From NCBI RefSeq assembly GCF_003334405.1, contig NZ_QOWM01000003.1: 64,000 nucleotides of DNA, one strand, 5' to 3'. Below, piece by piece: positions 30,893-31,207 of this stretch. The stretch is from Escherichia coli (GTDB taxonomy: Bacteria; Pseudomonadota; Gammaproteobacteria; Enterobacterales; Enterobacteriaceae). A model generated the notes under the pieces. That model was not told where the DNA came from, searched no databases, and saw nothing but the letters and a program-made list of their open reading frames with translations. The translations under genes and the position numbers were made by a program. Every line of letters begins with the position of its first letter. Positions within the stretch are counted from its first letter, which is position 1.

Positions 30893-31207
30893 GATTTCTC
30901 CTGTGAGTCGCATACGGAACCATCTCCGATGGAAGGTAAAAATGGCCTGAAAATAGTGTGCGATAGCGGTGCGGGGTTTTCGACGGAGCAAGCTGTTTTC
31001 CTTGCCAACAATCTTGCAAAAAAAATGCGATCGCTAAAACAAAAGTGCAATTTGCGGCAATATAGTTATTCCATGACCGTACAATCTTGCATTCAGTGTA
31101 AATAATCTTGTTTAGCTCTCGCTAAACGCGGTTGTATAACCGCAATACACGCCGTATTTTATCCGGCATATATTGTTTTTGCTTGCTCATGGAATAGGGA
31201 GGTTGTC

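Follow-up and report, generated by a model that had tools for sequence, protein, structure and literature searches.

Same-orientation repeats at a 21-bp pitch are the signature of AraC/XylS-family regulators, whereas LysR regulators and small HTH dimers typically use dyad sites. Several members of the XylS, RhaS/RhaR and MelR group are autoregulated, and the boxes of MarA, SoxS and Rob follow an orientation rule, lying 'forward' at the -35 as class II sites and 'backward' further upstream as class I sites. In the araC-araBAD system the regulator gene is divergent from the operon that it regulates, the half-sites lie 21 bp apart in the same orientation, and the regulator combines a cupin domain with a dual-HTH domain. 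Comparable features are seen at the ydiQ-ydiP locus of Escherichia coli, where ydiQRST-fadK would be the regulated operon. We consider it likely, from the comparative evidence described below, that the short repeats in this locus are a previously undescribed operator of YdiP and that they belong to an AraC-style system predicted for ydiQRST-fadK, ydiP itself and ydiN-ydiB-aroD.

The window analysed is a whole stretch of 64,000 nucleotides from E. coli, and its gene identities were checked against 5,369 E. coli genomes. An initial annotation had reported three same-orientation copies of AAT(C/A)TTGCA between ydiQ and ydiP. Re-reading of the sequence places AATCTTGCA at 31010-31018 and 31083-31091 and AATCTTGTT at 31104-31112, so that each of the reported coordinates is right to the base; the TATAAC hexamer at 31135-31140 and the 118 bp between the single copy and the ydiQ ATG (31010 vs 30892) are equally correct. 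The repeats themselves stand, but the A at position 4 of the reported consensus is found in no copy here and belongs to the AATATTGCA variant of a second set near ydiN. The first two copies share the exact 11-mer ACAATCTTGCA. The features used throughout are as follows.

ydiQ, 30128..30892, minus strand: first gene of ydiQRST-fadK, with its ATG at 30892
Putative ydiQ -10 hexamer TATTTT, 30950..30955, minus strand: TGA.AATA columns at a fixed distance from the ydiQ-side block
ydiQ-side conserved 45-bp block, 30981..31026, plus strand: CGACnnGnnAAtnTGTTTTnnTTnCCAACnATCTTGCAAAAAAA, from anchored alignments
Q1, 30990..30998, plus strand: weak box AAGCTGTTT, a putative half-site whose distance to Q2, on its right, is exactly 21 bp; of the boxes it is closest to the putative ydiQ promoter
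Q2, 31010..31018, plus strand: strong box AATCTTGCA (the first of the three copies), followed by an invariant A-tract at 31019-31026
P1, 31083..31091, plus strand: box AATCTTGCA (the second copy), with ATCTTGCA invariant in 25/25 aligned taxa
P2, 31104..31112, plus strand: box AATCTTGTT (the third copy), 21 bp from P1, with AAT(C/T)TTGTT conserved
Putative ydiP -10 hexamer TATAAC, 31135..31140, plus strand: conserved at a fixed distance from P2
ydiP, 31208..32119, plus strand: AraC/XylS-family regulator with a cupin AraC_binding domain and HTH_18, with its ATG at 31208
ydiN-proximal block, 38101..38129, plus strand: weak box ATAAAGTTT at 38101-38109 and box AATATTGCA at 38121-38129, homologous to the Q1-Q2 block
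ydiN-upstream tandem, 38194..38223, plus strand: GATCTTGCA at 38194 and AATATTGCA at 38215, 21 bp apart, abutting the ydiM stop codon

The footprint sample comprised 51 loci encoding YdiP relatives, drawn from Escherichia species, Citrobacter, Kosakonia, Enterobacter, Pseudocitrobacter, Symbiopectobacterium, Pectobacterium, Serratia, Dickeya, Yersinia and Brenneria. In all 51, ydiQ and ydiP are divergently transcribed, and the spacer separating them measures 315 to 911 bp. Conservation of the repeats in orthologous spacers, on which the initial annotation had staked its reading, is found in at least 12 genera, Citrobacter and Salmonella included. The ATCTTGCA-N13-AATCTTGTT pair is kept in more than 25 genomes of these genera, from Escherichia to Yersinia, and all 25 aligned taxa hold it in an exact 21-bp register. 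In this it behaves like the AraC-family direct repeat for which the initial annotation took it, here placed against the -35 position of a putative ydiP promoter. The anchored alignments give the ydiP-side consensus gTatnATCTTGCA-N6-gnaAAnAAT(c)TTGTTtnG. Upstream of P1, and over most of the stretches that separate the elements, the taxa cannot be aligned, and among 12 genus-level representatives the majority frequency is 0.96 in the box columns, 0.64 in the inter-box spacer and 0.49-0.58 in the flanks.

The position of the pair is tied to that of a putative promoter. The end of P2 lies 22 bp from TATAAC and P2 touches the putative -35 position at 31112-31117; if the hexamer is taken as the -10, P1 and P2 would be centred near -60 and -39. 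The suggestion that TATAAC could serve ydiP gains weight from the 25 aligned taxa, in which a similar hexamer (TATAAC, TATACA, TATATC or TATATA, often with an upstream TG) stands at a fixed distance from P2. A promoter scan found no consensus sigma-70 promoter in the ydiQ-ydiP spacer, which fits activator-dependent promoters. Directly after P2, and over the ydiP -35 position, an inverted repeat (GTTTAGC-TCTC-GCTAAAC, 31110-31127) is present in Escherichia and absent from other genera; the scan flagged it as terminator-like on the minus strand. Two natural variants of the region were also observed. In E. coli strain G5 (NZ_CP060065.1) an IS1 is inserted within the 901-bp ydiQ-ydiP query region, and in Shigella flexneri the match covers YdiP residues 1-160 only, apparently a truncated gene, with all three boxes kept.

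On the ydiQ side the distal copy, Q2, sits in a conserved block of its own. The majority frequency across the 45-bp block is 0.88 against 0.49-0.56 in its flanks (12 genus-level representatives), AACnATCTTGCAAA is present in almost every genus examined, and Q2 scores 20.5 with a position weight matrix (PWM) trained without Escherichia. Q1 is conserved as AAtnTGTTTT and lies 21 bp from Q2 when the two are aligned on TG; the A, TG and TTT are common to Q1 and P2 in the 21-bp register. The block begins 3 bp from the ydiQ -35 position (30973-30978), which reads AACCCC and is very poor. The distance from Q2 to the ydiQ ATG is about 100-142 bp in most genera and larger in Dickeya and Brenneria, and Q2 keeps its place by ydiQ while the spacer expands from 315 to 911 bp. 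As read from these alignments, the distal copy is a candidate half-site of the putative ydiQ promoter, within its own conserved block, and not an auxiliary site of ydiP.

Between Q2 and P1 a sub-block, TGnGATCG...GCAAAA (31027-31048), is conserved in the clade with compact spacers only. By inspection it contains a half-convincing CRP-like site, TGCGA-N6-AAACA at 31027-31042, which would be centred about -91 from the inferred ydiQ start site and of which TGnGA...(G/A)CA is kept in the same compact clade alone. GATCGC is found after the ydiN-proximal box as well, at 38147.

The second box set came out of a scan for 21-bp tandems with a PWM whose training sites (Q2, P1 and P2) were all taken from genomes outside Escherichia. 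The highest score in the 64-kb window (128 kb of sequence scanned) is that of P1-P2, 37.9, and the second, 23.6, belongs to a tandem in the ydiM-ydiN spacer; all other tandems in the window score at most 13, and unrelated sites at most 9.2. The ydiN set has a spacing of 73+21 bp, identical to that of the ydiQ-ydiP set in E. coli, and its nearest copy is 124 bp from the ydiN ATG (37997, minus strand). In Intestinirhabdus the 73+21 spacing is likewise present at both the ydiQ-ydiP and the ydiN control regions. The ydiN-proximal block is conserved in E. coli, Intestinirhabdus, Salmonella, Yersinia and Symbiopectobacterium, the last having GTTTTAGTTTCCAACTTTATTGC by ydiN as against GTTTTAGTTACCAACAATCTTGC by ydiQ, and an exact 21-bp tandem of ATnTTGCA boxes is found upstream of ydiN in 6 of 6 genera.

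Loci of 21.6 kb retrieved via YdiF homologues place these sites in a wider context. The order ydiL-ydiM-ydiN-ydiB-aroD-ydiF-ydiO / ydiP / ydiQRST-fadK is syntenic in Salmonella, Intestinirhabdus, Yersinia, Brenneria and Symbiopectobacterium, and in the loci of Salmonella, Yersinia, Intestinirhabdus and Brenneria the two best-scoring tandems lie close to ydiP (32-37) and upstream of ydiN (20-24). High-scoring tandems are thus found in 4 of 4 further loci with ydiP and in 0 of 3 loci lacking it, a small sample in which the ydiP-lacking clusters are organised differently. Those three, from Klebsiella aerogenes, Erwinia and Pantoea, contain a LysR gene along with ydiB-ydiM-aroD homologues and have no boxes (best tandem at most 8.6). 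The aroD-ydiF spacer has no conserved box. A single box-like CAATAATGTTGCACA (39978-39992, minus strand), which follows closely after RprA (40030-40137, minus strand) and lies upstream of ydiL, opens a block of about 40 nt, AATAATnTTGCACnAnATAnTGTGAnTCTnTTCAAG, that is conserved upstream of ydiL in Salmonella and Intestinirhabdus; the system may have a fourth target in this block, or another factor, YdiL for instance, may bind there.

Taken on one sequence, the repeats would not stand out. AATCTTG occurs 6 times in the window against 11 expected, 3 of the 6 being in the ydiQ-ydiP spacer, and the repeat 9-mer occurs 4 times against 0.96 expected; five different 7-mers form same-strand triples within 103 bp (dinucleotide shuffles give a mean of 1.3), and there are 8 exact 11-mer direct pairs within 100 bp (1.6 in shuffles). 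On these numbers neither the triple nor the 11-mer pair is rare enough to carry weight, and both could be due to chance, in which case they would be recurrences of a short word in AT-rich intergenic DNA, without function. It is the conservation across genera that speaks against this, as at least 12 genera keep both boxes and spacing in the midst of DNA that cannot be aligned, and a matrix trained on other genera recovers a second set of like architecture. Judged by these comparisons the chance reading is already refuted, and we give it almost no credence; recent horizontal copying of the orthologous spacers is unlikely too, because the YdiP proteins of E. coli and Yersinia share only about 65% of their residues. 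A different question is whether the three copies all serve the ydiP promoter, the one 73 bp away being a helically phased looping or auxiliary site in the manner of araO2-araI1, since the initial annotation had taken the distal copy for such a site seven turns from the pair. Distances of 73 and 94 bp do lie near 7 and 9 helical turns, Q2-P1 is 73 bp (one case of 74) throughout the compact clade of Escherichia, C. amalonaticus, Kosakonia, Pseudocitrobacter and Intestinirhabdus, and the identical geometry upstream of ydiN in E. coli and Intestinirhabdus could be read in the same way. However, the Q2-P1 distance is 241 bp in Salmonella, about 251 bp in the C. freundii complex and 316-354 bp in Pectobacteriaceae, Yersinia and Brenneria, and the constant, helically phased separation of AraC-type looping is not found, as these distances and 73 bp have no common phase. 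The distal copy moves with ydiQ, always holding its position in the block that abuts the putative ydiQ -35 position, and at ydiN, in E. coli and Salmonella alike, the tandem has no rightward-transcribed gene on which it could act. That all three copies act on ydiP is, in our assessment, improbable. Cooperation between the pairs, perhaps by looping, is possible in the compact clade, because 73 bp is invariant there and is repeated at ydiN, although the 241-354 bp seen elsewhere means that fixed phasing is not required.

The boxes may also be functional and yet belong to a regulator other than YdiP, for which YdiL, a LysR-type regulator encoded between ydiM and ydiN, or a global factor could be considered. 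This would account for two YdiP ChIP datasets, overlooked in the initial annotation, that list no peak at the ydiQ-ydiP spacer, where the initial annotation had looked to YdiP for binding. In the first, ChIP-exo of YdiP-8myc in glucose M9 gave 5 weak sites only (sdhC, uxaB, secG, cspA and yihQ; PMC8464067 supplement), with no site at ydiP/ydiQ or ydiN. The coordinates of these sites were shifted by about +776 to +1977 bp, the assumed offset from older to current MG1655 numbering (NC_000913.3); the shifted positions adjoin the genes named in PMC8464067, whereas the unshifted ones fell inside unrelated genes. None of the 5 sites holds a box above background, the best score being 12.0 near cspA, roughly the 97th percentile of background. 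In the second, ChIP-seq of YdiP-FLAG at 15 C, the broad peaks (0.8-22 kb) lie at tRNA, rRNA and other highly expressed genes (PMC9283627), and Supplementary Data 12 of that study has no peak in the ydi cluster. Both datasets are weak negatives, because the protein was C-terminally tagged and no candidate inducer was present in either study. Another regulator would also be in keeping with the small HTH gene ydiL, which is syntenic in the cluster, and with Yersinia, Brenneria and Symbiopectobacterium, where the divergent region that ydiN shares with a LysR gene contains the ydiN-upstream tandem. On the other side, E. coli, Salmonella and Intestinirhabdus are without the LysR gene yet retain the boxes, the ydiP-lacking, LysR-containing relatives of the ydiB-ydiM-aroD cluster are without boxes, and no FNR, CRP, NarL, IHF or PhoP consensus match was recognised in the boxes by inspection. 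YdiP is the candidate binder because the half-sites share one orientation at an exact 21-bp pitch, unlike the dyad sites of LysR regulators or small HTH dimers, because one pair lies on the putative promoter of ydiP itself, because boxes and ydiP are strictly syntenic, and because the boxes are absent where ydiP is absent. A regulator other than YdiP is in our view unlikely.

YdiP itself has the architecture of an AraC-family regulator. It matches the HTH_18 (9.6e-21), AraC_binding (1.4e-10) and Cupin_2 profiles, its DNA-binding domain resembles, and can be aligned to, the corresponding domains of SoxS, AraC and MarA, and ydiP is syntenic in all box-bearing loci. The initial annotation knew of no published operator for YdiP, and searches of the papers available to us likewise found no description of one or of ydiQRST-fadK regulation; for fadK a review reports no evidence for FadR or CRP control (PMC9329746). 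In the PPTP-seq supplements the ydiP and ydiQRST-fadK promoters appear as reporters only, with low signal, and no ydiP perturbation was found there.

Several further observations concern other regulators in the region. The LysR-family gene between ydiM and ydiN is divergent from ydiN in Yersinia (5208-6110 of its locus, L053) and Brenneria (5087-5989 of L056), and Symbiopectobacterium has an uncalled, perhaps decayed, copy at about 5300-6260 of L054. An FNR ChIP-chip peak has been labelled ydiP/ydiQ (PMC1802558), and the site predicted under that peak corresponds to a near-consensus FNR box, TTGATTTACGTCAA, which lies within the ydiP coding sequence at 31343-31356. We rejected this box as part of the conserved system, as it is E. 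coli-specific and its synonymous positions are unconserved even in other Escherichia.

We propose a model for the region in which the boxes act as half-sites, with a consensus of AAnAATnTTGCA/TTT, and the two DNA-binding domains of a YdiP dimer would occupy boxes 21 bp apart. The Q2-Q1 pair would lie at about -71 and -50 of an inferred ydiQ promoter with almost no -35, and would thus provide an activator site for ydiQRST-fadK. A second YdiP dimer may bind P1-P2, against the -35 of a weak ydiP promoter, and lead to autoregulation, for which class II-type activation is the better fit to the P1-P2 geometry. The ydiN-ydiB-aroD operon is probably under the same regulator via its homologous proximal block and the upstream tandem. 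The boxes point toward the ydiP promoter but away from ydiQ and ydiN, and this switch in orientation may be explained in a MarA-like manner, with class I or class II action set by distance from the promoter.

What YdiP might sense is suggested, as a lead and not as a result, by transcriptomes of shikimate-producing strains. In one such strain ydiQ, ydiR and ydiT are up about 30-fold (PMC4015609), and a second producer, when carbon was limiting, showed induction of ydiN, ydiB and aroD (Johansson and Liden 2006, as cited in PMC4585142). Both fit co-regulation of the two operons and are compatible with one regulator sensing a hydroaromatic compound. A more speculative possibility, which we regard as less likely than not, is that YdiP would be a pathway-specific sensor and activator of a cluster of about 13 genes, ydi(L)MN-ydiB-aroD-ydiFO / ydiP / ydiQRST-fadK, and not a cold-shock regulator, with a hydroaromatic effector of the shikimate/quinate family or a CoA-thioester of one, and that the cluster would encode an unrecognised, probably anaerobic, route. 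If so, the route would join a quinate/shikimate dehydrogenase, a dehydroquinase, a CoA-transferase, an acyl-CoA dehydrogenase/reductase and a FixABCX-like electron-transfer module. The hints are that the ydiQ and ydiN control regions have the same boxes, that both operons are induced in shikimate-accumulating strains, that a shikimate-kinase gene is present in the Brenneria and Symbiopectobacterium clusters, and that ydiP-lacking relatives pair ydiB-ydiM-aroD with an enoate-reductase-like flavoprotein.

The gene content of the relatives is worth recording in its own right. The shikimate-kinase (SKI) gene lies by ydiL/ydiM, at 3091-3615 of the Symbiopectobacterium locus (L054) and 2617-3168 of the Brenneria locus (L056). 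In Klebsiella aerogenes, Erwinia rhapontici and Pantoea allii (L068-L070) an Oxidored_FMN/Pyr_redox gene (enoate- or dienoyl-CoA-reductase-like) is followed by ydiB-, ydiM- and aroD-like genes with a divergent LysR gene, and these ydiP-lacking clusters are without ydiFO or ydiQRST. Amino-acid identity between E. coli and Yersinia is about 92% for YdiO, 88-89% for YdiF, about 74% for YdiQ and about 65% for YdiP, YdiO and YdiF being unusually conserved; YdiF homologues in Firmicutes are 60-65% identical.

YdiP is an E. coli y-gene regulator without a known motif, for which two genome-wide binding studies led to weak or hyper-ChIPable sites and to the name CsiP (cold-shock). A conserved AraC-style operator on the promoter of ydiP and on two adjacent operons would offer an alternative, namely YdiP as a local regulator. 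For ydiQRST-fadK a role in anaerobic short-chain fatty-acid use has been proposed, and the Salmonella ydiQRSTD operon is treated, to judge from titles, in papers dealing with short-chain fatty acids and gut colonisation, while ydiN-ydiB-aroD is the origin of troublesome by-products in industrial shikimate production. The result provides exact candidate sites and promoters for an uncharacterised regulator and a 13-gene cluster.

Comparison with described systems returns to AraC. Like araI1-I2, the pair by the operon -35 would consist of a strong distal and a weak proximal half-site (Q2 and Q1), and like araO1, a second tandem pair (P1-P2) lies over the putative promoter of the regulator itself. 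The box sequence, however, is unrelated to the ara half-site, the ydiQ and ydiN boxes face away from the transcribed gene, and the pairs stand 73 bp apart in one clade, as against 241-354 bp elsewhere. Furthermore, a single distant half-site of the O2 kind was not identified in the ydi system. The ara promoters, together with those of rha and mel, typically have a CRP site (TGTGA-N6-TCACA), whereas the ydi region offers, by inspection, only the half-convincing CRP-like site described above. The arrangement of orientations recalls MarA, SoxS and Rob, in that the box at the putative -35 position (P2) has one orientation and the boxes further upstream (Q1/Q2 and the ydiN-proximal block) the opposite one, although MarA-type proteins are monomers with single 20-bp sites, and the ydi boxes form 21-bp pairs and YdiP has a dimerisation/ligand domain. 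RhaS/RhaR act on half-sites in inverted orientation and MelR on four sites whose orientations are mixed, where the ydi system has two pairs per control region. Finally, with XylS (Pm), RhaS/RhaR and MelR the ydi system would share two-site operators over roughly -70 to -35, weak core promoters and a regulator encoded beside its catabolic genes.
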